Origin: Deltaproteobacteria bacterium
Lineage (GTDB): Bacteria; Desulfobacterota; WTBG01; JAGOGO01
Assembly (NCBI GenBank): GCA_017996625.1
Contig: JAGOGO010000002.1
Span: forward strand, 1,017-65,016
Direction: 5' to 3'
DNA length: 64,000 nt
Shown here: piece after piece, positions 49,577-63,999 of the stretch
Numbering within the stretch: position 1 is the stretch's first letter
Layout: every line of letters begins with the position of its first letter
Translations under genes and position numbers: made by a program
The notes under the pieces: generated by a model
What the model was told of the DNA's origin: nothing
What the model saw: only the letters and a program-made list of their open reading frames with translations
Databases searched by the model: none

Positions 49577-52500
49577 TTATAGGTAATCCTGCCACGTCAC
49601 AATCGACGATTGTGGATCAAGAAAGAAATCAGTATCCTTGAATAGGAAGTAAGGCCAATCCTTTGAAATACTTGACTCAGCTAGTCTATATCCTGCTTGG
49701 TCGTACCAGTCAATGTGATGTTTCTCCTTTACGGGGAGAATGCGCAGTTTCGGTCCCGTGTACGTTGAGAAATCATCGACAAGTGTAACGGGAATTTTCC
49801 GTTGAGTCGGATAGCGTTCGTCTTCTATCGTAGCTCTAGCATCCTTTCTTTCGAATATCCATTTATCAACTAATCTGGGTTCCAGAACAGCATCGCTGAT
49901 TTCGCCGACGTTGTTCCAATACTCCTTGGCTATAACTGCAGCATCTGGGCGCGTGTAGGCTTCTTTCCTTGTCAGGAGATGTGTAGCAATAGGATCAAGC
50001 ATACCCCAGCTTATCATATCCTTATACCATAACACCGACCACGGCAATTCGCATCGCCGCCAGCGTTCCAGAAAATCTCCATCGCCGCCATCATGCTCAA
50101 GAATAGACCCAATGGCTGATCCAAGAGCCCAATTCAATCCATAGATAAAATACTTAGATGCAAAGTCATACCAACGAGAAACACTCTTGCCTGATGGAAT
50201 GCGATCGGATCTATAAGGTGCCATCCACCAGGTCAACACATCTTGCCAAGCCACAGTGGACTTCCCGCTTGTTAGATCACGAACTCCAAAGGCTTCAATC
50301 TGGCTAATCGCCTCAACTAAGGAGGTGATATTGTTGATCCGCTCGGAATCGTTCCAAGTGACGAAGTCCACTGCCTTCGTCATGATGGTCTTGATATTAG
50401 AGAGCTTGGAGATCAGCACCTTTCCATCTCTCGGCGCCAAACCTGTATGATATAAAGCGCGGCGATATTGTTTTTCAGGATAAATGAACTCTGTTATTGC
50501 TTTTCCTCGCTGCAGAAATATCTTTTCTGCAATTGAGTCACTGAAACCCATTTTACAATGAAATGCTAGTGTGTTATGCCACAGCGACCGAAGTGAATCC
50601 TCCATATTTGCTTCGGGATTCAAGCCTTCAAGTTCGACAATACTAGTGAGCAATTGCTGATCAAGCGTATCTAAAGATCTTAAGAGATTCCCTTCCTCGC
50701 CTTGCGCCGAAGAAAATGCAGTCCGTTCAAGCCAAGCGATAAACTGATTGATATCCTTGCTCCCGGATAGGCGCGACCAGAGATTCTCAATCCGAATTGT
50801 CAAAGCATACAACGGAGAGTTTAGTCTTTTGACGTTTTTGACTTGCCGCTCGGTCATGGCGCGGATGATCTTCTCATATGCCTCTTGAGAAATCTTCTGA
50901 GCTTCTCCAAGGGCATTTGTGGAAAGTAGTACAAGTGTTTTACCCTCTGTAGAAACTCCTGGCCTTCCAGCCCGCCCCGCTACGTTAATTATCTCCCTTG
51001 AGGTCACAGGTTGTCTTGAATTCACAGGCTGTCGAAAGCGTAAGAGTGATGGTATCAGAATTGTCTCAAAAGGAAGATTCACGCCTTCAGACAGAGTTGA
51101 GGTTGCAATTACGATATTGATTACATGCTCTTCAATAAGTTCGATGAGAAGGCGAGACATCACCGGCGGCATCTTGCCATGATGAAGGACTATACCCTTC
51201 TGAAGGAGACGGTGTTCACGGGAAATCGGACCGAAGTAATCAGCGCATGAAGCCAAACAGCGAGATAAAAGGGCTTGATCCCTGCTGCGCTTTGGCTGCC
51301 CGAAGAAATCTGGATATTGGATGTCTGCCCAATCATCTGTGAGTAACCTTATGAATGTTTCAGCATATTGTTCAGGGTGCTCGGTTACTGATATAAGAAC
51401 CGAGTGTCTTTTCCCGTCCAAAGGTCGAGCGAAGTGCATGGCCGCCCATAATAGATGTGCCCGCATGCGCTTCTCAACACTATCATCTTTCTTAAAAGCC
51501 CTTATTACCGGCGGATGCGGGGGAAAAGGGTTAGCAACGTAGGGGGCACTTTCCTCCTCATTAACTAATAGACGTTGTCCATCGAGCACATCATATCGAA
51601 TAGTGGTCACTCCATTGTCACTACACCACAGTTGGCCAAAAAGTTGACGAGTACTTCTATAATCTGGGGCAATAGCGCGAGATTCATTCTTTCCTGTCAT
51701 CCAAGCTGACAGAACATCCCGGATATCTGTTGCTACAGCAGACAACGCTACGAATGTGGTATGTGGAGAACATAAGGTTTTCAGCCGAGAGACAAGGCCC
51801 TCCAACCGTAGAGAGCGGCTTTGAGCTGTGGCCAGAGCTTCGTAATCCCCTGTGAATGCAACTGAATGGGCCTCATCAATAATAACGCATGATAGCTTTT
51901 TCAGCATTGTTTGACCTAACAAGCGAAGAAGAGCATCTGCTTTTTCATGCGTCGAAATTAATACGATAGGTTGTTCTGCAATATTGGTTAGGTCCGATGG
52001 GCCAAAATCATTGCCACCATAAAGTGACGTAACTACGACGCTCGTTGCTCTGATGTTGCGCAAAGAGCGTGCAATGTTCGATTCAACCTCACTCGAAAGT
52101 GCTTTTGAGGGAGTGAGATAGAGAATCAATGGGGCGTCATTCTTGATGTGTCGATCTTCATGTCCAAACAAATGACGTAGTATCACCAATTCCGCGACAC
52201 GCGTCTTACCTGAGCCAGTAGGTGTGCAAAGAGCAAAAGAACCTTCTGATGCAATGCCAGCAATACCAGCTTGCTGAGATGGCCAAGTTAGTATCTTTCT
52301 TTCCAGAAATGCGACTCTCGCATAACGGTTTAATGCCTGACGACCGTCATCGGATACCTTTTCTGTGAGAGGTAAGAGCGATGTCCAAAGAGCCTCGTTC
52401 TTAAACTCTCGTGCGATTGCAGCGAAAATAACAGAAAGCAACCAAGAGAACCTATCACTATCGTAACGTAATGCGCTGGCGACCTTCTCAAGAGTCTTTA

Positions 52501-53152
52501 TAGCCGAGTCGATCCGCACCTCATCTCCCCACCTCATCCATGCTGTAAGTACTCCGATCGCGCGTAATAGCTGATTGAGAATCACAATACCTGTCTGATG
52601 TTTTGTTGAATCGCCTTTACCACCATGTCGCCAAAAGTCTAGCAAAAGTCGTTGTGCTCGAAAAAAATCCGCACGAAGAAGAGCTGTAAGAATCTGTGAT
52701 GTCTTATCCGGTAGAGTATGTTCAGACAATATTCCTAAAGCTCTCGCGGGGTACCCAGCTAATTGGTAAATGGATGCAGCAAGGAGTACCACTGGAATTG
52801 GGAAATCGACAGGTGAACTTGTCGCCGCCCACTCAAATATCTCTGCAGCGCGGCGCAGGTACCTACGGCTATCGGACATATCTGGAGCAGCCATTCCAGC
52901 AATCAAAAGCTTTTCACCCTCGGTTAAACGAACAATGAGTTCATCATTTGTCCATGAAGGCAGTCCCTTCGCACCAGCGCGGAGCCTTGTATGTTGGGCA
53001 TAGAGGCGTGCAATACCCCGACTGAGCGATGGTCCGGCCACGCGCTCTGCAAAGTCGTGAATCAAGTCCAAGCTGCCTTCAGCCATATATTTCATTTGGA
53101 GCCATCCATCCTCTCGTAGAGTGAAGAGATGAGGATATGAACGCCAGGGCAA
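49577..53152 (-). CDS. large SF2 DExH helicase, HamB-like (Hachiman-type helicase partner of DUF1837)
   Basis: Motif I CTPTGSGKT, II VIIDEAHS, VI VAGRAGRPG. 1191 aa with long N- and C-terminal extensions. The start overlaps the upstream DUF1837-like gene by 61 bp. The helicase call is secure; the Hachiman assignment is inferred from gene pairing. Confidence 0.5.
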   Translation of the reverse strand: MPWRSYPHLFTLREDGWLQMKYMAEGSLDLIHDFAERVAGPSLSRGIARLYAQHTRLRAGAKGLPSWTNDELIVRLTEGEKLLIAGMAAPDMSDSRRYLRRAAEIFEWAATSSPVDFPIPVVLLAASIYQLAGYPARALGILSEHTLPDKTSQILTALLRADFFRAQRLLLDFWRHGGKGDSTKHQTGIVILNQLLRAIGVLTAWMRWGDEVRIDSAIKTLEKVASALRYDSDRFSWLLSVIFAAIAREFKNEALWTSLLPLTEKVSDDGRQALNRYARVAFLERKILTWPSQQAGIAGIASEGSFALCTPTGSGKTRVAELVILRHLFGHEDRHIKNDAPLILYLTPSKALSSEVESNIARSLRNIRATSVVVTSLYGGNDFGPSDLTNIAEQPIVLISTHEKADALLRLLGQTMLKKLSCVIIDEAHSVAFTGDYEALATAQSRSLRLEGLVSRLKTLCSPHTTFVALSAVATDIRDVLSAWMTGKNESRAIAPDYRSTRQLFGQLWCSDNGVTTIRYDVLDGQRLLVNEEESAPYVANPFPPHPPVIRAFKKDDSVEKRMRAHLLWAAMHFARPLDGKRHSVLISVTEHPEQYAETFIRLLTDDWADIQYPDFFGQPKRSRDQALLSRCLASCADYFGPISREHRLLQKGIVLHHGKMPPVMSRLLIELIEEHVINIVIATSTLSEGVNLPFETILIPSLLRFRQPVNSRQPVTSREIINVAGRAGRPGVSTEGKTLVLLSTNALGEAQKISQEAYEKIIRAMTERQVKNVKRLNSPLYALTIRIENLWSRLSGSKDINQFIAWLERTAFSSAQGEEGNLLRSLDTLDQQLLTSIVELEGLNPEANMEDSLRSLWHNTLAFHCKMGFSDSIAEKIFLQRGKAITEFIYPEKQYRRALYHTGLAPRDGKVLISKLSNIKTIMTKAVDFVTWNDSERINNITSLVEAISQIEAFGVRDLTSGKSTVAWQDVLTWWMAPYRSDRIPSGKSVSRWYDFASKYFIYGLNWALGSAIGSILEHDGGDGDFLERWRRCELPWSVLWYKDMISWGMLDPIATHLLTRKEAYTRPDAAVIAKEYWNNVGEISDAVLEPRLVDKWIFERKDARATIEDERYPTQRKIPVTLVDDFSTYTGPKLRILPVKEKHHIDWYDQAGYRLAESSISKDWPYFLFKDTDFFLDPQSSIVTWQDYL

Positions 53153-54012
53153 TGGAATTCGACTGATGTTAGTTCACGCATCCCAGTATATCGTTCGTGG
53201 GGAGAGTCTGTTGGAATCCATGTCTTCCTAAGCTTGGGGCAATCACCACAAACATACACACTCAAGTCGCAACGAACGGAAAGCTTCCTCGATGCATATT
53301 GCCACCAATATTTCTGCAATGCGGAGATCCAAGTTCGGCTGTACTTGTCATCACGATAATCCTTCAACGCATCGATCAGTCGGAGCAAGTCAATTGGTCG
53401 AGTCACGGCCTGACTGAGTTTCTCATGATTATCGGATATCAGTTGAGACGAATGATCTCTGGTACACTTCGCTTCGCATGCCAGCCAAGCTATGATATCC
53501 CCATCCTTATTTAGCGCAAAAGCTAGGCCGTCATCGCCTGTCCGCCCTATTACTTGCCTCGACCACTCATCAGTTTGTTTCATGTATTCGAGCTGCTGGA
53601 AAGCAATTACATGAGTGCGAAAAAGGTAGACCGGAACTTTCCATTCGTATTCACCATCTCCTGCATAGTATTCGGCGACAATTCCGGCGATAATCTCGCC
53701 AAAGAAAGCTTGAAGAGCGATATTGCCCAGCTTGTGTGGATATCCAAAGGCCGGGTCGATTTCAGTATCATAATGGAGAGGATGTAGTGAGTTTTCAAGT
53801 GGTGCCCGCAAAGATTGGCGAGCACCATCATGGGCGTGGTCAATATATGTGAAAAGTTCATCTAGTTCGGGTTGAGTAACGGTCCGTTTAGCGCGAATAA
53901 GCAGATGGCAATAGCGAGGGGATTTTTTGTTATGAGTCTTCTCTACCGTTAGCCAAGAATTTAGCAGTCTCAGTCGCGGATGTTCAGCAGAAACTATTGG
54001 GTCGGATTGCAT
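53092..54012 (-). CDS. HamA-like (DUF1837-like) PD-(D/E)xK nuclease-fold protein
   Basis: LNKDGDIIAWLACEAKCT gives a D...EAK nuclease motif. 306 aa, translationally coupled to the helicase. Confidence 0.4.
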   Translation of the reverse strand: MQSDPIVSAEHPRLRLLNSWLTVEKTHNKKSPRYCHLLIRAKRTVTQPELDELFTYIDHAHDGARQSLRAPLENSLHPLHYDTEIDPAFGYPHKLGNIALQAFFGEIIAGIVAEYYAGDGEYEWKVPVYLFRTHVIAFQQLEYMKQTDEWSRQVIGRTGDDGLAFALNKDGDIIAWLACEAKCTRDHSSQLISDNHEKLSQAVTRPIDLLRLIDALKDYRDDKYSRTWISALQKYWWQYASRKLSVRCDLSVYVCGDCPKLRKTWIPTDSPHERYTGMRELTSVEFHCPGVHILISSLYERMDGSK

Positions 54013-54490: not shown

Positions 54491-54832
54491 CTATGGTTCC
54501 TTCAGAGACAAGACTTCTATCTCACCTGATAGGGTATCAAAAAGGAAATGATCAACCTTGTCGAGTTCTCCCGGTATTAACATCGGCGCCCTTTTCAACA
54601 TTGCCACCCACGAGGAGTCTGCTACTTTGAAGGTGTTTCCAAGTCTCTTGAGTCTAAAGTATTTTTTAAATCGAAACGCTACACAATGCTTAAACAAAAC
54701 CAGCCACTTTTTGTTTTTACTGATGTCCTCAAGGCATATAGAAAGATGATTGTCGGATTTTAAAATAATCTCGTGGCTGGCAAGATTATCGATACGAGAC
54801 AAAGGCGTCTTCCACACTTCTATTGAATCCAT
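54491..54832 (-). CDS. hypothetical 113 aa protein downstream of retron RT
   Basis: ORF only, 175 bp from the RT stop. Confidence 0.25.
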   Translation of the reverse strand: MDSIEVWKTPLSRIDNLASHEIILKSDNHLSICLEDISKNKKWLVLFKHCVAFRFKKYFRLKRLGNTFKVADSSWVAMLKRAPMLIPGELDKVDHFLFDTLSGEIEVLSLKEP

Positions 54833-55007: not shown

Positions 55008-55934
55008 CTAGATGTTGCTCAATACTCGTTTGCCGTATTTTTGTTCCATCCGTTCGACAAAATTCGGTTCGATAGAGCGGGCAAATGCAAGCATGCCGCG
55101 GAGTGAACTTTTTTCCTGGGGAGTGAGATGTCCCGTTATAAGATGATGTATCTGCGCTCTAATACGGCGCTTCTTTTCTCGGCCAAGTGACACACGGCCT
55201 GCATTAGAGAGAACTAATCCGGTTACCATCCGACGATGAGCTTTTGACCCGAAAATTGTTTTCTTCTGATTAATTTGCAGCTTAGGAAATGGCAGTTGTT
55301 GTATCACTTGAAGAACCCTATTGAGAACTTCTGATCTAGCTGCCTTCTCCATCATGGAAAAAGTCATATCATCGGCATACCTGGTATATGTGATACTACG
55401 TTGGCAACAATAGCTTTCAATTTCACTATCAAACCTATGCATGATGGCGTTGGACAAATAAGGAGAGGATGGAGCACCGACTGAAAGCTGAAGGTTGTGA
55501 ATTCGTTTAGGATACCAAAAAAGAATCCTTACAAGCAACTGTAGATCGAGCTCATCGAGGTCCAGGTTGTTGAGTTCTCTTATGTACTGAATAAAATCAT
55601 CTCCCTTGATTGAAGGAAAGAAATCCACGAAATCAAGCTTCAGCAAATAAGGCTTGGCGACATGAAGTTCAGAGTTGTTTAATATATTCTTTGCCTTTAT
55701 ATAGGCAGTTGCGGACGGATGAATTGGCAATCGTGGAAATAAATTCTCAATAACCCAGTACTGGAGCCTTTTAACCTCCTTAGCTGGTTGGGCTATGGTG
55801 CGCATACCAGTTCCAGATCGCTTTGGTACCTCATAGACCTTATAGCGATAAGGTGCACTTCTAATTAAGTATTCCAAACGTTCCTTTGGCAGAAGTAAAT
55901 CTTTAGACAATTTGGCTAAGAGTGAGACTACCAT
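55008..55934 (-). CDS. retron-type reverse transcriptase
   Basis: All retron RT signatures are present: PKRSGTGMRTIAQPAKEVKRLQYWV, LKLDFVDFFPSI, SVGAPSSPYLSNAIM, YTRYADDMTFS, VTGLVL. 308 aa. Confidence 0.85.
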   Translation of the reverse strand: MVVSLLAKLSKDLLLPKERLEYLIRSAPYRYKVYEVPKRSGTGMRTIAQPAKEVKRLQYWVIENLFPRLPIHPSATAYIKAKNILNNSELHVAKPYLLKLDFVDFFPSIKGDDFIQYIRELNNLDLDELDLQLLVRILFWYPKRIHNLQLSVGAPSSPYLSNAIMHRFDSEIESYCCQRSITYTRYADDMTFSMMEKAARSEVLNRVLQVIQQLPFPKLQINQKKTIFGSKAHRRMVTGLVLSNAGRVSLGREKKRRIRAQIHHLITGHLTPQEKSSLRGMLAFARSIEPNFVERMEQKYGKRVLSNI

Positions 55935-55947
55935 AAAAAAGTCCGAT

Positions 55948-56916
55948 CTAACTCGTTTGCCTAAAATGTGAAATCAATGCCTTGTATTTTTGCTTATTGT
56001 GGTGGATGTAATGATCATTAAACATTATTGTCCAACGATCCCGATCCATGCCACGAACGTTTGCCGTCTGTCTATAGGCAATCGCGAGCCGAGGTTCGTG
56101 CGCGCAAGTGCGGTAATAGACATTGTGGCCGTATTGCTTTTTTTCAATCAGCTTCAAGGATTTCAGTAAACTCAAATATTTGCTTAGTTGATATCGTTCA
56201 TACCGTATATCCAGCCATTCGAGAAATTTGTTTAATTCATCTAAAGATGCGAGCTGCACAGTCTCCAGCAGATCGAGCATTAGTAGCATGACATGCCCTA
56301 ACTTATCTCTGCTGAACGATTCGGACTTTGGCAATTCCAAAAGAATTTTCATTACTGTCTCTGCGAGGTCTTCCACATCAAAGAAATCATCCTGCGTGAC
56401 CGACTCGTCATTATTATCCTTGTTCCTCCAAGTATATACTGTAACTGGGCTATCTTTGCCGTTCTTTTCTGCAATCTTCATAATATGCAGGATGGGTCCT
56501 CGCCAAATAAAAGATTTCTTTTCCCAATGATCTTTGTGCATGACTACCAGAAGTCTTTCCCGAATAGTATCCAGTACTGCAAACGAACCGAGCTCAGCAA
56601 TTGAGCCAGGGCTCTCCGAGAAAATTATTGTCAAAGCAGATAGCTCAGCCAAGTCTCTTTCAAAGTCAAGAAGGTCGGTGTATTCTGAGTGGTAAAAATA
56701 GTCGAAAACATCCTCTGCTAATACAATGTCCTGGCGATACATGTATTTGCTCTGACAGATATATTTGCAAAAGGCATCGCGACAAGAGTGCGGGGCTTTG
56801 TGGGAGTCTGTGATTTCACCACCACACAGGAAAACGAAGGAAGGCAACTTGACGACACGGCTCTTCGTCAAGTCAATTGATGATATCCATTCTCTGTATA
56901 TTGGATCTATTTCCAA
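55948..56916 (-). CDS. retron accessory/effector protein with N-terminal nucleoside 2-deoxyribosyltransferase-like (NDT) fold
   Basis: VFLCGGEI... and ESPGSIAELGSFAVL resemble the NDT family D.G[TS].FE.G.A catalytic-Glu motif. 322 aa with a TTG start. It lies 14 bp upstream of the RT, the Sen2-like arrangement msr/msd - effector - RT. Confidence 0.45.
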   Translation of the reverse strand: MEIDPIYREWISSIDLTKSRVVKLPSFVFLCGGEITDSHKAPHSCRDAFCKYICQSKYMYRQDIVLAEDVFDYFYHSEYTDLLDFERDLAELSALTIIFSESPGSIAELGSFAVLDTIRERLLVVMHKDHWEKKSFIWRGPILHIMKIAEKNGKDSPVTVYTWRNKDNNDESVTQDDFFDVEDLAETVMKILLELPKSESFSRDKLGHVMLLMLDLLETVQLASLDELNKFLEWLDIRYERYQLSKYLSLLKSLKLIEKKQYGHNVYYRTCAHEPRLAIAYRQTANVRGMDRDRWTIMFNDHYIHHNKQKYKALISHFRQTS

Positions 56917-56920
56917 TAGA

Positions 56921-57085
56921 ATGCTCTTTACTTAGAGGCAGGCATGGTGGCCTTCCTCGGCTTACCGACGGTGAGCCGAGGAAGGCCACCATGCCGGTAA
57001 GTGTTATCAATCCGTAAAAGTCCAGCGGAACGCCGGACAAAGCCTAAAAACTGCTTATCCTCTAAAGAGCAAGTTCTATCCTTGC
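56921..57085 (-). ncRNA. candidate retron msr-msd non-coding RNA
   Basis: Read on the minus strand. A TTGACA -35-like hexamer sits at about 57100. It is followed by a1 GCUCUUUAGAGG (57070-57059). The msr hairpin is GUCCGGCG-UUC-CGCUGGAC. A perfect 22 bp stem GGCAUGGUGGCCUUCCUCGGCU / AGCCGAGGAAGGCCACCAUGCC with an 11 nt loop (56943-56997) is the proposed msd. An imperfect a2 CCUCUAA(GUA)AAGAGC (56938-56923) abuts the effector start. Confidence 0.4.
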
Positions 57086-57197
57086 AAGATTTCAGATGCT
57101 TGTCAATGGCAAACTTAATATTCAGTGTTTGATTTATTATATTCCCGCAACAAATATCCATGAGGTAGGATGTTTCTTGCTAAGCATAAAACCCTTC

Positions 57198-59972
57198 TTA
57201 TTTAACCGGTACCCTCCCGCTCAAACCCAAATCTCCGAGTATGAGCTTGAGGTCTGACTCGAAGCTCTGTGCCTGGTTCTTCTCAACCGTTACGGAAAAA
57301 CAGATACTGATCTTCAAGTCCGATCCGCTGCGCAGCTTCGGGAGAATCTTTGTCCCCAGTCGATTCCAGACTTCAGGCGGAATCTCACCGGAAATCTGGA
57401 ATGTGCGGGTTCCTGCACCAGGTATAACCTCCGGCTCGGTTCCTTCTCCTGACTGAGTGCCGATCACATCTATAACTTCTGGTCGAGGTTCCGGACGCTG
57501 GGTGGGCTCAGGTTCATGAGCCGGCCCTGAGCTTGACTTTAACGCCTTGGCCTTCGATTTCAGAAGAAGAAATACTCCCTGATCGAAAATGATTTCTTCT
57601 GACGGGACTGCCTCCTGAAACCAGACCCGATCATAGGAGCCGTCTGTCTTCTGACCTGAGGCGAATCCAAAGTCCCCCTTATCCACCCAAGCAGCTATTC
57701 TGCTGCGCAGGACAGTGTCTGGATCAAGGAGGCGCGTCAGTGATCCATTAAGGAAGCTTTGCCGGAGACTGGTCAGAGGCCAGGCACCGGAGTCTCTCAA
57801 GGCAGGGGGCCAATTGCGTTCAACATAGCTGGCTCCTACTGATTCATTCAGCAAAGCCTGCGACTTGAGCGCAGTGATAACCCGGCCGCACAGAGTCTCT
57901 CCACTGCTGGAGTGCCCAGCTCCGAGGTCAATAGTCTTTAATCCGTTCGGCTCCTTGCTGTCAGCAATGACTACAAAGCGATAGCCTCCCCATACTTCGT
58001 CGTGGGCTGCTTCTTCGCCTTCAGTCGCCTTTGTCCGCACCTCCAATCTATCTTCAGGACTGAATTCTCCTCCCAGTGTCTTCTCTCTGATTTCCTTATC
58101 TACTCGTTTCCAGGCCAACCATAGTTCAATCTTGTCACGCAAATCGCGGCCGGGCTTTTTCACACACCACACAAGCGAGCCCGGATAGAGCCTGGGTGAC
58201 TTTCCCCTTTGCTTGGTCCATTCGGCAATTTGATCAACAAGGCTCCCCTTACCCGTCCATTCGCATGCAGGGTCAAGCACCACAAGCGTCAGCTTGGGTG
58301 TATCTTGAATCTCGGTGCCGTCGGATGGAAACTGGACAAGGGGAATGGTTGCTCCACGCTCAAACTCTTTTTGAACAACAGCGCGCATGGCCGGTTTGAC
58401 ATCGTTCTCATCATCCAGGGACGCGCGTCGGTCGTTCACAACCTTTTTCATCGTCGGCTGGTAGCCGATTCTGAATCCGTCGGAACCGATGCGTCGAATG
58501 AAATATGATTTGTCTTCGAGAGCGAAAGCGGCATTGTCCACCGACGTGGTATCGATCTCCGGCTCACCAAGGGCAAAGCGCAATTCGGGCAGGTGCGCCA
58601 CTTTATCCACCTGGCCACCGGAAGACTCAAAGAGAATCGCAGTGGCTACCCGTCGATGAATATCGCGCAATGCCGCTTTTGAGTCAGCATCGAGGGCGCG
58701 GGCATGAGAATGATCGCCGGCAATATCAGCATCAATAGCGGCCTCAAGGCGTGATTCCCCAAGTTGGCCGAGAACAACACTGCGGAATTCCGCCACCTCC
58801 AAAGGAGCCGATCCAAGAGTGATAAGCGCCTCGTTGCGCGCGTCATAGAAATTAGTGCGGCTAGCCCAGGAAATCCACTGGGCAAGCATGGCAAGGGTTC
58901 CACGCGTCTGCTGGTACTGCGGCAATGCCTGCCATTTTCTCTGGAAAACCGACAGGGTCGCGGGGTGAAATGGATAACACGTCTCAAATCGCTGCTGCAA
59001 ATATTCTTTGGCTTTTGCTTCCGTGGCTGCGGTGTCAACGGCCATCCATTCAGGCGGAAGCTGGGCACGGCGTTGGAAGCACCATTCGGCGTAAGTCTTC
59101 GCCACAGTCTTGCGAACTCGGTCTTTCCCTATGTCCTCAAACAACCGCCGGCGAATCACTTCGCTTATTTCAGTTTCGTCGTTTGCGATGAGATCCTTGG
59201 CCACACGTCGAACCACCTTTGTAATCTTATTCTGCCATGCCATGTCCCAGTCGGTCATTTCCACCTGGCTTCGCGGCAAACTTATGACTGCTGCTCCGTG
59301 AGTAGTACCCGTAGTTGCAACCGTCAAGTTCTGAATAAAGGAATGGAACTGATCAGCCATATCTCTATGCCGATTCAAGAAGTTCAGTACTTCATCGAAG
59401 AGAATGAGCACCGGGGCTTCAGCAGCCTTAAAAATCCGATCAAGCGCTTCGGTACCTGGGGGCGTATTCCTTGCCGATGTTCCGAGCTCCCTGACTCCCT
59501 TATCACCCGCAAGCTGCCGAGCAATATCAATCCACGGTGTCTCGCGACCTTCTTGCGGATCCCAAGCATTGCCGACAAATGCAGCGACTTTCGCATGCGG
59601 CACTGCGCTTATTGTTGCCTCATATACAAGATCAGCGACACCAGTATACTCGGCTGCCTTTTCACCGCTACTCATCAAATGGTAAAGAGCTGCAAGTGTG
59701 TGCGTCTTGCCGCCACCGAACTGAGTAATAAGGGTCATGACGGGTGCCGTATTCGCTGTCTCGCCCGAAAGCCGACGCATCACCATGCCGGTGTGCTCTC
59801 TGAGTGCCCGAGTGAAGCAGGTACGAGCAAAGAATTGCTTCGGATCGCGATAATCTTCCGGAGCAGTTTTGGCAATCACCTGTTCCAGATGAATGGCAAA
59901 CTCGTCCGGGTTGAACGAACGCCCTTGTCTGACTTCTTTACGAGGGGTAGTGCTTTTGTACCACGGGTCCAT
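57198..59972 (-). CDS. DUF499-family P-loop ATPase (COG1483-like), 924 aa
   Basis: Walker A TQFGGGKTHTLAALYHL, Walker B PVLILFDEVLN. The large size and the pairing with a DUF1156 methyltransferase match the DUF499 context. The DUF499 assignment itself is from memory of the family. Confidence 0.55.
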   Translation of the reverse strand: MDPWYKSTTPRKEVRQGRSFNPDEFAIHLEQVIAKTAPEDYRDPKQFFARTCFTRALREHTGMVMRRLSGETANTAPVMTLITQFGGGKTHTLAALYHLMSSGEKAAEYTGVADLVYEATISAVPHAKVAAFVGNAWDPQEGRETPWIDIARQLAGDKGVRELGTSARNTPPGTEALDRIFKAAEAPVLILFDEVLNFLNRHRDMADQFHSFIQNLTVATTGTTHGAAVISLPRSQVEMTDWDMAWQNKITKVVRRVAKDLIANDETEISEVIRRRLFEDIGKDRVRKTVAKTYAEWCFQRRAQLPPEWMAVDTAATEAKAKEYLQQRFETCYPFHPATLSVFQRKWQALPQYQQTRGTLAMLAQWISWASRTNFYDARNEALITLGSAPLEVAEFRSVVLGQLGESRLEAAIDADIAGDHSHARALDADSKAALRDIHRRVATAILFESSGGQVDKVAHLPELRFALGEPEIDTTSVDNAAFALEDKSYFIRRIGSDGFRIGYQPTMKKVVNDRRASLDDENDVKPAMRAVVQKEFERGATIPLVQFPSDGTEIQDTPKLTLVVLDPACEWTGKGSLVDQIAEWTKQRGKSPRLYPGSLVWCVKKPGRDLRDKIELWLAWKRVDKEIREKTLGGEFSPEDRLEVRTKATEGEEAAHDEVWGGYRFVVIADSKEPNGLKTIDLGAGHSSSGETLCGRVITALKSQALLNESVGASYVERNWPPALRDSGAWPLTSLRQSFLNGSLTRLLDPDTVLRSRIAAWVDKGDFGFASGQKTDGSYDRVWFQEAVPSEEIIFDQGVFLLLKSKAKALKSSSGPAHEPEPTQRPEPRPEVIDVIGTQSGEGTEPEVIPGAGTRTFQISGEIPPEVWNRLGTKILPKLRSGSDLKISICFSVTVEKNQAQSFESDLKLILGDLGLSGRVPVK

Positions 59973-60082: not shown

Positions 60083-61252
60083 CTATTTTAATTCTCGCCG
60101 CTTGATATACTCTGCGAATAAAGGATCGGCGATGCGATACTGACCGCGTCCGATTCGCTCAACTAATCCTTTTTCCGTAAGCCGCTTAAGCACTTCCGCA
60201 GCGTTCTTTACCTTTGCGCTGCGCTTCTCAAGGGTTCGCGGGCTCAGAACGGCATCATTTGTAGCCAGCACTTTGAGCGCTGTCATTTCTTGAACACTGG
60301 CACGCCCCACCATCCCTTCAAATTGCGCATCAGCCAACGCCAGAAGTGTATGGTAAAGTGCGGTTTCCCAATTTTCCATGGAAACCCTGCCTTTGACTTG
60401 CTGATCAAAAAGGGCTTCGCAGAGTGCCTGTACTTCGAAAACATGCCCACGAGTGATATCGAAAATATTTTCTTTCACACCTTTCTCAAAAACGACTCCC
60501 GATTCTCGCAGGGAATCATCGATAAGCCTGAAGGTCTCGGTCTTCGCAAAAGAGCCCAAAGGCCTGCGAGGCATAAACAATCGCCCGAGAGGATGATCCC
60601 GTACCAGATACGGTTTCCATGCTTGCTCGATTGAACTAATGACCATGAGGATTTTTGTTTGTCCAAGAATACGCTCATCAGTAAGCACATTCCTCAAGAG
60701 GGTAAGCTGCTGTCCCTCTGTCGAGAGATTGTGGACATCGTCAATCAATATGACCAATGAGCGCGCTCCATGCCTTTCGGCGTGTTCATGCAGCCGCATC
60801 AAGCCATCGCGCAGTACTAACTGCGGGTCTTGATTCGCAGAGGCATTTCGCCACTGCAACTGAAATCCAAAGCCGAGCACACTCGCACCTGCACCTTCAA
60901 CACGCTTTGCAAAAGGCTCCTTCTTCTCTGGCAGAATAGGCAAATCAGACGCCGTCATATCGAGCACATGGCGAGCGAAATCCGTGAGGCCTTCCTGAGC
61001 GGCAAATGCCCGGGTACTGAAAAGGAGAGCCCACGCTCCCTCGGTTCGAGCGACCAACTTCATCTGCCGGAGAAGAACCGTCTTTCCGATGCCCCATGTC
61101 CCCGTGATAACGTAGTGTTGAAATCTGCCATGGAAAGCGTTGCTCAACCGTTGTTTGAAGAACGCTACTTCCTCATCCCGGCCAATGAAAACTTTTGGGT
61201 CCATGCCGGATCTTGCTGTAAACGGATTGACAAGCATCTTCTCTCCTCTCAT
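60083..61252 (-). CDS. AAA ATPase of the archaeal-ATPase (PF01637-like) type with C-terminal wHTH
   Basis: Walker A VITGTWGIGKTVLLRQ, Walker B LVILIDDVHNL. The C-terminus LTEKGLVERIGRGQYRIADPLF is a wHTH. Confidence 0.55.
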   Translation of the reverse strand: MRGEKMLVNPFTARSGMDPKVFIGRDEEVAFFKQRLSNAFHGRFQHYVITGTWGIGKTVLLRQMKLVARTEGAWALLFSTRAFAAQEGLTDFARHVLDMTASDLPILPEKKEPFAKRVEGAGASVLGFGFQLQWRNASANQDPQLVLRDGLMRLHEHAERHGARSLVILIDDVHNLSTEGQQLTLLRNVLTDERILGQTKILMVISSIEQAWKPYLVRDHPLGRLFMPRRPLGSFAKTETFRLIDDSLRESGVVFEKGVKENIFDITRGHVFEVQALCEALFDQQVKGRVSMENWETALYHTLLALADAQFEGMVGRASVQEMTALKVLATNDAVLSPRTLEKRSAKVKNAAEVLKRLTEKGLVERIGRGQYRIADPLFAEYIKRRELK

Positions 61253-61258
61253 GCTACC

Positions 61259-63999
61259 TCACCTAGGCACAGCCAGCAGCATTGCATCGAGCAATCGTTT
61301 CTCCTCACTCCCCTTCGGATAGAGCGCCGAGAGGGCATTAGCCAAACGGAGAAAATCCGGGCTGCGCTCCTGCTCGGCCTTAACCAGCGCCCGTAAGGCA
61401 TTGGTCTGTCCGCCAGACTGCAGCAGCATCGCAGCATGCACGCGATCAAGCGTGGTAATATTTCGCTGGTTCTGAAAATCGGCAGCAGCCGGGTCCAAGA
61501 CAACTCCTTTCCGCTGCCCTCGAACGCGAAGCTTCGGTGCCTGCTCTTTCTCCAATTCAGGAAAGAGAACACGCTGCAGGTTTTTCATAGGCTGCTTCTC
61601 GATGATATCAGCAGAGGCTCTAGCGCCTTCTTCGCCAAAAAGTTGCTTGCTGCGGTCGGCAATGCCCAAGAGCCTGATCACGCCCTTCTCAGTCTTGATT
61701 ATGCGGTTCTCCCACTTGGGAAGATCAATCCCGAGCGGCTGCGCAAAGCGGCGGACTACATCGAAGACGAGACTATATCCTTTAGCCTTCCCTTTCGGAG
61801 TAGGTTCTTCATCATCCTCGTCAAGCTCTTCTTCCTCTTCAACATCTTGGCTTTTACCTTTGCTCTTTTCATTTTTGTCTTCAGCATTGGTGGCCTGCAA
61901 CGTCCATAGGAATAAGGCTGTTAAACGCGCATCCTCTTCCAATACACCTGCCATACCATTTCGGGCACGAGCTTCCTCAGTGCCGAGAATCTGTTCCAGT
62001 GCCGTGCGGCCCACTACCTCCCAGACCTTCTCCAGGTACTCAGCAAGCTTGACCTCGCGACCTTCGGCAGTCTCCACCTTTGAGTACCGGCTGAAGATTT
62101 CGAGAGCCGGTCCGATACAGGCGAACACCAGATCCGCCCCTCGAATCCCTTCGCCCTGCAAGCACTCCATCCAGTCCCCTACCCGATTTGGAAGTTCACG
62201 AAGCACCTCCGACCAATCGCCCACGGATGCGTCCTCTGGACGTGGACGACAGACGAGGTGGACACTGGTGGCGAGGGCAGCTGTGTCGCGTGCCAGTAGT
62301 CGAGCTCCCCTCTCTGTTGCAATGGGCCAGGAACCTGTGATTGCCCAACCGCCGCGGACGATGCCTGAAAGAAGTGCTTCCCATCCTTCGGTTGTCTTGT
62401 GCGCAAACACTACAGAGGCAATCCCATCCTCCTTCAGTACTCGCCGTCCTTCTGAGAAAGCCTGAGCCATGGCGTCTTCGTAGTACTGTCTGTCTTTGAC
62501 ACGCCCCGTGGGGTCACGATCCTTTTGAGATTGGATGACCTCGGCAGCTTTGGGAGTGAGGGGGTTGGATGCCTCATAAGGGTCTCGCAGTAGCGGGTCT
62601 CTCGCCATCATCCGTTTCAGCCACACGAAGAAGAAATCGGAGAGGTCAGAATAAGGGATTGCGTCATAGTACGGCGGATCAGTGAACCAAACTGTAGCCG
62701 AGTCATTTGGCAACGGATGATTTGTGGCGTCTGCCAGCTGCGTTTGTCCCATCTTGGGTATCCCACTTGCGATCTGCGAAACAGCTCCCACCAGTTCGTC
62801 AATTGCGTTTCCCACCCCCCCGCGAACTCAGATAGCGGATAGAACTCCGGAAAATCCCATGACATAGGCAGCGCATGTCTGCCGAACGCCCCAGCGACTG
62901 TCTGACTGCCTTTGTGCCAAAAGGCGAAAGCATTGCAATGTCGGATGGTTTTGCCAAGCACGAGAGACGGAAGTCCGCTTTTCCCCACTATTACTCCAAG
63001 CAGTGTGTGTACCAACGCCTGTCGAAGTGAAAATAGGTCTCCAAATACCCGTGCCCCATAGCGTGTGACCGCGGAAAGACCACGAGCATTTGCAGAAGGG
63101 CGCTGTGGATCAATGGGTTCATCTGGCAATGGGCATGGGCCTTTCTTGCCCGCCTTTTCCCATTGGTGAACAAGAAGATTCATCCGCTGATGTGCCTTCC
63201 ACACCGCTTGATAGTCTTGTGTTGTGGGTTGACGGTACTTTCGCTCGCGGCTATTATTGCACATCGTAACAACCGCTAGCAGTCTCGCCCCACCAATACG
63301 GTTGCCATTTGTATCAAAAATCACGTCTGGCCGGCCACCTTGCTCGGTGATTTGCTCACGAACGCGTTCTGATGAAAGGACAGCACCACAGGCAGGGCAC
63401 GTCGCCCTGCCATCCTTTATCGTTCTTTGCGCGATCTCTTGATGTTGGCCGCGTGCTGACGCCGCTATCTCGAACTCTATCTCGGGTCTTTTGCCATGCT
63501 TACGAATGACCGTGTGTCGAAGGCCACACTGCCAGCCACTGCTTTGGCAGAAGAGAAATGACCGCGCAAGCGGGATTTCCGCTCCGCAGTTGGGGGACTC
63601 GCATTTGACCGTTCTCGCCCAAAGGTAGGCTATCGGCGCGGCCCCGTCAGGGTCCTTGGGATAAAACTCAGCGAGTTCCTTCTCAGCCTGTTTCTTGATC
63701 TCACCGCCGACCCGGCGCAGTTCCTCGGCAAGCTCTGGTCCATGGCGTGGAATATCTTCCAGCAGGACTTTGAGAATGAGGCAGGCTACTGGATTGAGAT
63801 CGCTGGCAAATGCTTCACAGCCCAGTCTCAGAGCTTCCAGTGGGATCGATCCACCACCTGCAAAAGGGTCAACAACGAGCGGCGGTTCCTCACCATGCGC
63901 AGCCTTTACTAGCGTTCGTCCTGCTTCGGCATACATTGGGTTGCATGACAAATCCCAGTTTGCGAAGTCGCCTATAAACTCAAGCAATGCTTTCCTCAA
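61259..63999 (-). pseudogene. DUF1156-type Zn-ribbon DNA methyltransferase (COG1743-like) split by a -1 frameshift at a G7 homopolymer. N-part 62617..63999 (motif I, runs off window), C-part 61259..62815 (DPPY)
   Basis: N-part has VVDPFAGGGSIPLEA (FxGxG SAM motif) and CxxC pairs (CESPNCG, CPACG). C-part has WFTDPPYYD (motif IV). The two ORFs overlap by 199 bp in different frames. The frame change maps exactly to GGGGGGG at 62815-62821 (minus strand). One additional G would give the continuous product ...YPLSEFAGGVGNAIDELV.... Confidence 0.6.

Follow-up and report, generated by a model that had tools for sequence, protein, structure and literature searches.

What does a long, perfectly paired hairpin do in the gap between two bacterial genes? 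The stretch of DNA considered here (the window) comprises 64,000 nucleotides (nt) from a Deltaproteobacteria bacterium (NCBI GenBank assembly GCA_017996625.1, contig JAGOGO010000002.1, positions 1,017 to 65,016 of the forward strand), and all positions below are counted from its first letter. A gap of 280 nt separates a DUF499/HmaC gene (57198-59972) from an effector open reading frame (ORF; 55948-56916), and it holds an element that the original prediction had proposed as a candidate msr-msd, the non-coding RNA (ncRNA) of a retron. This proposal is now supported by the St85-family effector and reverse transcriptase (RT) encoded downstream, by orthologous loci and by covariation. The element at 56923-57070 on the minus strand is very probably the msr-msd ncRNA gene of an apparently intact type II-A1 (St85/Sen2-family) retron, in which ncRNA, effector and RT follow one another on that strand. 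The St85-family retron is a known kind of bacterial anti-phage system, and this locus is a new yet ordinary member.

The ncRNA and its two protein genes

The gene next to the element (55948-56916, minus strand) encodes an effector of 322 amino acids with a TTG start codon, an NDT-like protein of the retron St85/STM3845 (RcaT) family. It matches the NCBIfam model for the retron St85 family effector (NF038232) with 225 bits, against a cut-off of 100, and the PADLOC model NDT_II-A at 7.9e-73, and its orthologues carry PF28093 (STM3845). The start codon is TTG in most loci of the clade and ATG at the same position in two of them (L081 and L167 of the loci collected for comparison). Since the first ten codons (I-Y-x-x-W) vary synonymously among relatives, the TTG start is taken as real. 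The second gene (55008-55934, minus strand) encodes the retron RT of 308 amino acids, recognized by NF038233 (retron St85 family RNA-directed DNA polymerase; 355 bits, cut-off 235), by RVT_1 and by PADLOC RT_II-A (398 bits, 7e-120), with RT_I-A as the second-best PADLOC model (341 bits). It contains the motifs RYADD, RMVTG and N87-S-E-L-H91 (N-x-x-x-H), and YADD, VTG and N-x-x-x-H are invariant in 50 homologues.

The ncRNA measures 148 nt from a1 to a2 (56923-57070, minus strand), an extent supported by the match of a covariance model (R2, described below) and by a sub-threshold alignment of the Rfam msr family. Its 5' inverted repeat, a1 (GCUCUUUA, 57063-57070), shows no variation among close relatives and is perfectly complementary to the 3' repeat, a2 (UAAAGAGC, 56923-56930), a pairing found by repeat search and consensus fold and supported by covariation in the family. 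The repeat search reported the two as a perfect 9-nt inverted repeat, 57071-57063 (UGCUCUUUA) with 56930-56922 (UAAAGAGCA), enclosing the hairpin. The original prediction had drawn a longer pairing, between 57059-57070 and 56923-56938, with a bulge of 3 nt. Both repeats are present as placed (GCTCTTTAGAGG at 57070-57059 and a 16-nt partner at 56938-56923) and can pair around a bulge, but as they measure 12 and 16 nt the bulge is 4 nt long. Of the proposed pairs, the outer 8 bp are conserved. The inner block occurs as GAGG/CCUC in the window alone; its counterpart in most close relatives is AGCG or AGUG with CGCU, and the pairing is weaker in L168 and L169. The inner block was rejected as a part of a1/a2 because it is not conserved across the wider family, in which the alignment register differs. 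A longer a1/a2 stem from the minimum free energy fold of the window, pairing AUAGAA (57079-57074) with UUCUAU (56921-56916), was also rejected, because the complementarity is absent in relatives and the position lies upstream of the likely transcription start.

Directly 3' of a1, in the motif UUAG, stands G57062, which is invariant in the alignment of close relatives (column G14); its aligned counterpart in Ec86 is the G of UUAGCG, the branching G of that retron. G57062 is a candidate priming (branching) G and would carry the 2'-5' branch. Two msr stem-loops follow on the minus strand. The first (AAGC...GCUU, 57040-57056) comes from the RNAalifold consensus; the second (GUCCGGCG-UUC-CGCUGGAC, 57020-57038) is seen in the sequence, the fold and the consensus, and it is the G·U-containing hairpin with a UUC loop that had been proposed between the repeats, with 8 bp at 57038-57020, one of them G·U. 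A single-stranded linker (56996-57019) with a conserved AUUGA motif, within an ATTGAT that is invariant among close relatives, leads to the msd hairpin (56941-56995, minus strand). Its perfect 22-bp stem and 11-nt loop had been described correctly and placed 2 nt off, at 56943-56997; the stem arms (GGCATGGTGGCCTTCCTCGGCT) lie at 56974-56995 on the minus strand and 56941-56962 on the plus strand, as found by an inverted-repeat search and supported by family covariation. The hairpin is followed on the minus strand by TGCCTCTAAGTAAAGAGC, and a conserved G stands just before a2, as in Ec86. The segment 56910-57071 of the minus strand folds with z = -8.7 relative to shuffles, and the fold of 56900-57130 on the same strand, which had been suggested as a check, reaches -95.8 kcal/mol with z = -9.4.

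Orthologous loci and covariation

Does this RNA belong to the retron genes or to the DUF499 gene upstream? Homologues of the RT number in the hundreds and are mostly metagenomic, and many are 60-71% identical to it. Genome and metagenome scans returned mainly relatives of at most 49% identity and one of 64% (L081), and the E. coli genomes, searched at near-identity with the whole locus, gave no match. Counting the duplicates L161 and L162 once, nine close-relative loci were fetched (L081 and L161-L169). In each, the RT is directly preceded by an STM3845-family effector gene, and this in turn by an RNA that opens with GCTCTTTAG..., passes through two msr hairpins and a long stem of differing sequence, and closes with ...TAAAGAGC; in L164, this RNA came from the model search. 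The genes further upstream differ from locus to locus and include an antitoxin, a DDE transposase, an SNF2 helicase, UvrB and a zinc-ribbon gene. Since the same RNA stands beside unrelated neighbours, the element moves together with the retron genes, not with DUF499. Absence of the hairpin from orthologous loci, or its transcription only as the 3' untranslated region of a DUF499 gene, had been named in the original prediction among the outcomes that would speak against it, and this check does not go against it.

The alignment of nine sequences with MAFFT involved no structure fitting. Its RNAalifold consensus contains a1/a2, the two msr hairpins and the msd stem, and 14 pairs of this stem show compensatory changes. 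A covariance model built from this alignment (R1) matches at full length, on the strand of the RT, in about 50 of 169 loci with RT homologues. All clear full-length matches fall in loci whose RT is at least about 36% identical to the query, and in more distant retron types the matches are marginal at most. Between the match and the RT downstream there are either about 900-1190 nt, which include the effector, or 30-130 nt; the latter arrangement is that of type I-A retrons, and one such locus is annotated with PtuA and PtuB. In the model-based family alignment, 92.8% of cells are paired, compared with 61.6% in shuffles and about 40% with slid partners, and 46 of the 47 modelled pairs change on both sides. 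These double changes include all eight pairs of a1/a2 (97.4% of cells paired), all four of msr stem-loop 1 (94%), all seven modelled pairs of msr stem-loop 2 (90%) and all 22 of the msd stem (95%). A short helix before the msd stem (GAUR/YAUC) is weak, with 73% of cells paired. The 8-10 nt 5' of a2 (56931-56940, and likewise in relatives) resemble a1, for example CGCUCAAAG compared with CGCUCUUUAG, and their CUC is kept in many members; a local hairpin between this a1-like CUC block and a2 was rejected, as it is paired in 68.5% of cells against 64.4% in shuffled alignments and shows no excess covariation.

A second covariance model (R2) was built from eight relatives, leaving the window out. 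Over the 64 kb of the window it has a sole full-length match, at 56918-57075 on the minus strand (136.3 bits, E=9e-38), and its other match there is the expected reverse-strand echo of the palindrome.

These data bear on two other origins of the hairpin. It could be an intrinsic terminator, or a structure in the 3' untranslated region, of the upstream DUF499/HmaC gene, as it lies downstream of that gene on the same strand and no other terminator is predicted in the 280-nt gap. However, the stem begins about 200 nt past the HmaC stop codon and, as had been observed from the start, lacks the T-tract that together with a GC-rich hairpin marks an intrinsic terminator; a terminator scan of 56700-57400 returned 0 sites. 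The structure moreover accompanies retron genes where the upstream genes are unrelated or on the opposite strand, and its stem covaries within the larger fold enclosed by a1/a2. We give this explanation next to no credence. Nor is there much to commend a chance palindrome or a dispersed repeat (repetitive extragenic palindromic or miniature inverted-repeat transposable element-like) unrelated to the retron. Some dispersed repeats are typically long perfect palindromes, but the 22-mer of the msd arm has no second copy in the 64-kb window even when up to three mismatches are allowed (0 expected from shuffles), the hairpin keeps a fixed place with respect to the RT in about 50 loci, and the stem sequence varies among orthologues while its pairing is kept, the opposite of what a dispersed repeat would lead one to expect. 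Such an origin is extremely improbable, and the hairpin is treated in what follows as the msd of a retron ncRNA.

Several of the loci collected are unusual in their own right. In L168 (1-1521), about 55 nt separate the end of a DDE transposase gene from a1 downstream, the msd stem has several mismatches and the effector is called shorter, with 284 amino acids; this may be a decaying retron. In L087, a contig of 2.7 kb, the usual order is turned round: the RT match occupies 734-1621 and the ncRNA match follows downstream at a distance of about 800 nt (2436-2637), for which tandem retrons, a circular contig or a misassembly are possible explanations. In L161 (1016-1516), the gene caller of the source had placed on the opposite strand a 166-amino-acid ORF, with no Pfam match, that spans the whole ncRNA; it is probably a false call provoked by the RNA gene, which had not been annotated. 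Finally, an RT homologue of 62% identity (P0046) comes from a metagenome-assembled genome labelled Promethearchaeota (Asgard archaeon) at NCBI, reflecting either binning contamination or an archaeal retron.

Probable promoter, predicted msDNA and possible toxin control

Where would transcription of the ncRNA begin? A TTGACA hexamer had been pointed out about 30 nt upstream of a1, and it lies at 57106-57101 on the minus strand, exactly 30 nt before the first G of a1. Read as a sigma-70-type -35 box (57101-57106), it is conserved in position: TTGACA stands 28-30 nt upstream of a1 in nine of the ten clade sequences (the window and nine relatives), the exception being L168 with its DDE transposase gene just upstream, and TTGAC occurs at a comparable distance in many more distant members of the family. 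A candidate extended -10 (TGcAAGGAT, 57078-57086, minus strand) would follow after a 17-nt spacer and end 7 nt before a1; hexamers of the form nAnnnT end 6 nt before a1 in L161, L163-L167 and L169, with a spacer of 16 nt in L169. The promoter is called on the conserved -35 box and the spacing. With the -35 box at a fixed distance, transcription probably starts at G57070 or 1-2 nt before it, a placement that agrees with the retron Vmi1, where a promoter was predicted 6 bp upstream of msr (PMC11701397). As the effector and RT genes follow with no terminator in between, the msr-msd RNA is probably the 5' leader of a single ncRNA-effector-RT operon transcript.

The multicopy single-stranded DNA (msDNA) that this RNA would template can be predicted by analogy with alignments to Ec86 and to Ec78-type retrons. 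In Ec86, the priming G stands opposite the nucleotide 5' of a2, and copying of the template begins at the one after it. Applied to the window, this places the msDNA on the plus strand from about 56932 to about 57009-57010, a predicted length of about 79 nt (56932-57010) with ends uncertain by several nt. Folded as DNA, the predicted molecule forms a 26-bp hairpin (-34 kcal/mol, z = -11.5). A calibration of the msDNA length on the P4-satellite locus L170, assumed to be Ec73 (73 nt), was dropped because the end fell inside the stem. [quoted passage not shown]

Retron RTs recognize the folded RNA and prime from the 2'-OH of a G by the inverted repeats, and RNase H1 removes the template (PMC8989520). 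By analogy, the RT of the window would bind the msr hairpins, prime from the 2'-OH of G57062 and reverse-transcribe the msd from about 56932, across the hairpin, as far as about 57010; host RNase H would remove the template meanwhile, leaving an msDNA of about 79 nt with a stem of 22-26 bp. The complex of RT and msDNA would then keep the NDT-like toxin (a homologue of RcaT) inactive, and phage factors that disturb the msDNA would release the toxin and lead to abortive infection. Both the antitoxin role of the RT-msDNA complex and the anti-phage defence are carried over from Sen2 and Eco9 (bioRxiv 10.1101/2020.06.22.160168).

Some points weigh against reading the element as the ncRNA of an intact retron. 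The Rfam msr family (RF00170) aligns at 57002-57070 on the minus strand with 22.2 bits (E=3), below its gathering threshold of 52 bits. The family alignment was itself fitted to model R1, and 10 of its 59 rows repeat the palindromic stem from the reverse strand, to which one doubtful reverse-strand row from L009 must be added. A scan with the strict sigma-70 consensus called no minus-strand promoter, and the -10 box of the window (AAGGAT) is weak, matching the consensus at 3 of 6 positions, which accounts for its being missed by that scan. We infer the priming G, the ends of the msDNA and the defence function only by homology with retrons that have been studied.

Could the element be a retron ncRNA by descent that has become an inactive relic, making no msDNA and giving no defence? 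The weak -10 box would fit such a state, as would the apical region of the msd, which is about 15 nt shorter in the window than in all close relatives, and L168, with a transposase gene upstream, no TTGACA and a mismatched stem, illustrates decay in a relative. Set against this, both ORFs are full length and keep the catalytic YADD and the family-invariant residues, the msd stem is perfect, a1/a2, G57062 and the -35 box are intact, and the start codon and reading frame of the effector are conserved. A relic is therefore quite unlikely, if somewhat less far-fetched than a terminator or a repeat, and the locus is read here as an apparently intact retron.

Why does the effector begin so close to the ncRNA? 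Its TTG lies 6 nt downstream of a2; starts in the clade lie 6-7 nt after a2, and in most environmental II-A1 loci the start is no more than about 10 nt from the modelled end of a2. In the window, a2 is the only purine-rich sequence resembling a Shine-Dalgarno sequence upstream of the effector start (56914-56930), and the neighbouring HmaC gene has AAGGAG at a similar spacing. With a2 as the sole such sequence and the start so near, pairing of a1 with a2 could limit translation of the toxin. It is thus possible, though we put it forward as a doubtful proposal drawn from sequence, that a2 doubles as the Shine-Dalgarno sequence of the toxin gene, so that each transcript would be either folded, serving as RT template with its ribosome-binding site (RBS) occluded, or translated, with a1/a2 open. 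If this were true, the ncRNA would set the toxin-to-antitoxin ratio in cis, and the arrangement would replace the terminator-like hairpin that lies between ncRNA and effector in the enterobacterial and Vibrio relatives examined. Against the proposal, the sequence of a2 is the same in loci without a closely following ORF, and in Sen2 the levels of RcaT were reported as largely unchanged in the antitoxin deletion strains tested (bioRxiv 10.1101/2020.06.22.160168). Sequestration of an RBS by retron RNA has been reported only for type VI retrons, where the hybrid RNA of Retron-Vpa2 sets a precedent for an RNA structure that sequesters the RBS of an effector (bioRxiv 10.1101/2025.10.22.683967). The likeness to Vpa2 is conceptual only: that retron is of another type, with another architecture and a small peptide as its effector.

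Known retrons, neighbourhood and significance

How does this ncRNA relate to those already described? The Rfam msr alignment in the window begins exactly at a1. Among the close relatives, the Rfam model reaches 32.2 bits in L166 and has no match in L161, L163, L165 and L169; because it falls short of the clade of the window, homology is shown through R1 and R2. The Rfam model does exceed its threshold in L172, L012 and L007, where it overlaps the 5' (msr) part of the R1 matches, and R1 also matches PGAP-annotated St85-family loci of E. coli (in a P4-like satellite) and Vibrio. The ncRNA of this locus belongs to an environmental II-A1 clade beyond the reach of Rfam, and its class is common to types I-A and II-A1. 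In the published classification, these two types share one ncRNA class and RT clade 1, and Sen2/St85, Vc81 and Ec73 are assigned to II-A1 (Mestre et al., PMC7736814). The general description of retron ncRNAs given there, with one to three msr hairpins and a long stable stem-loop in msd, fits the RNA of the window (PMC7736814).

A second Rfam family, STnc400 (RF02058, "Gammaproteobacterial sRNA"), aligns below threshold directly 3' of msr matches in enterobacterial and Vibrio loci, at 1300-1436 of L170, 1310-1433 of L171, 2313-2427 of L172 and 326-407 of L007. From this position it covers the msd part of St85/Ec78-type RNAs, and this "sRNA" family appears to be a retron msd.

The closest counterparts by organization, both of type II-A1, are Sen2 (St85) of Salmonella Typhimurium, a tripartite toxin-antitoxin system with the order msrmsd-rcaT-rrtT (bioRxiv 10.1101/2020.06.22.160168), and Vmi1 (Vm85) of Vibrio mimicus, which consists of msr-msd, orf323 and ret and has two RNA stem-loops (PMC11701397). 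The window shares with them the order msr-msd, effector, RT, and its effector of 322 amino acids is close in size to RcaT and ORF323 (about 320). Further likenesses are the promoter just upstream of msr, the two msr stem-loops, the G after a1 and the long msd stem; for Sen2 they are taken from the published description. The RT of the window is only about 40-44% identical to the PGAP-annotated St85-family RTs from the plasmid collection. After a1, the window has UUUAG where the St85-family loci of E. coli, Vibrio and Rahnella (L170, L171, L019) have UUUACG. The St85-family loci examined from enterobacteria and Vibrio carry a terminator-like hairpin after a2, with the effector start coming 41-56 nt later, whereas the window has no hairpin between a2 and its TTG.

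The ncRNA is homologous also to that of type I-A retrons such as Eco7 (Ec78). R1 scores 49.7 bits on a Klebsiella locus of the Ec78 type (PtuA/PtuB), where the RNA runs ACUCUUUAGCG...AGUAAAGAGU and Rfam msr is above threshold. In type I-A, the RT comes directly after the ncRNA and the effectors (ATPase and HNH) behind it, whereas in the window an NDT-like effector stands in between.

Eco1 (Ec86) is more distant. The sequence that we take to be its ncRNA matched 48 E. coli genomes at 99-100% identity. It follows a common plan of a1 and G, an msr hairpin and then AUUGA, a long msd stem and a G before a2, and its first downstream ORF begins 6 nt past an a2 that resembles a Shine-Dalgarno sequence (TAAGGGTGCGCA-ACTTTC-ATG). 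The best R1 match falls exactly on the ncRNA but is weak (11 bits, E=0.03), and the effector gene of Ec86 lies upstream of the ncRNA, so that the ORF after a2 is the RT. Ec86 is of type II-A3, with an RT of a different clade, clade 9 (PMC7736814). In the PGAP annotation of the Ec86 locus of E. coli C (L173, 1591-2760), the coding sequence of the effector overlaps the first 14 nt of the ncRNA, the RT is started at a later ATG (2752) and not at the ATG 6 nt after a2 (2678), and both proteins are labelled "St85 family" although Ec86 is of type II-A3.

The retron lies between two groups of defence-like genes. On one side is an Hma-like system comprising HmaC (57198-59972), an AAA_16 ATPase with an AbiEi-like C-terminus (60083-61252) and an HmaB-like (DUF1156-type) methyltransferase (61259-63999). 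The last is split into two overlapping minus-strand ORFs (62617-63999 and 61259-62815), which correspond to the N-terminal and C-terminal portions in the same PADLOC HmaB models; the cause is either a frameshift (a pseudogene or a sequencing error) or a programmed split. On the other side (49577-54012) is a HamB-like DEAD-box helicase of 1191 amino acids (PADLOC HamB, 4e-68), before which an ORF of 306 amino acids (53092-54012) takes the position of HamA and has no match to PADLOC or Pfam models. An ORF of 113 amino acids downstream of the RT (54491-54832) has no significant family match, and as the genes downstream of the RT differ in all orthologous loci, it is probably not part of the retron. 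A retron between Hma-like and Hachiman-like genes fits a defence island and is consistent with an anti-phage role.

The locus leaves the general understanding of retrons unchanged. What was an intergenic hairpin without annotation can now be described as a retron RNA gene, for which a promoter, a priming G and an msDNA are predicted. With its compact, perfectly paired msd and its intact operon, the locus is a reasonable candidate for use in retron-based DNA production, and the overlap of a2 with a possible RBS offers a testable idea on how expression of the toxin is limited. For the family, the msr model of Rfam misses a widespread environmental clade of St85-type retrons that R1 and R2 recover. 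The ncRNA also completes a putative three-part defence system between the Hma-like and Hachiman-like genes.

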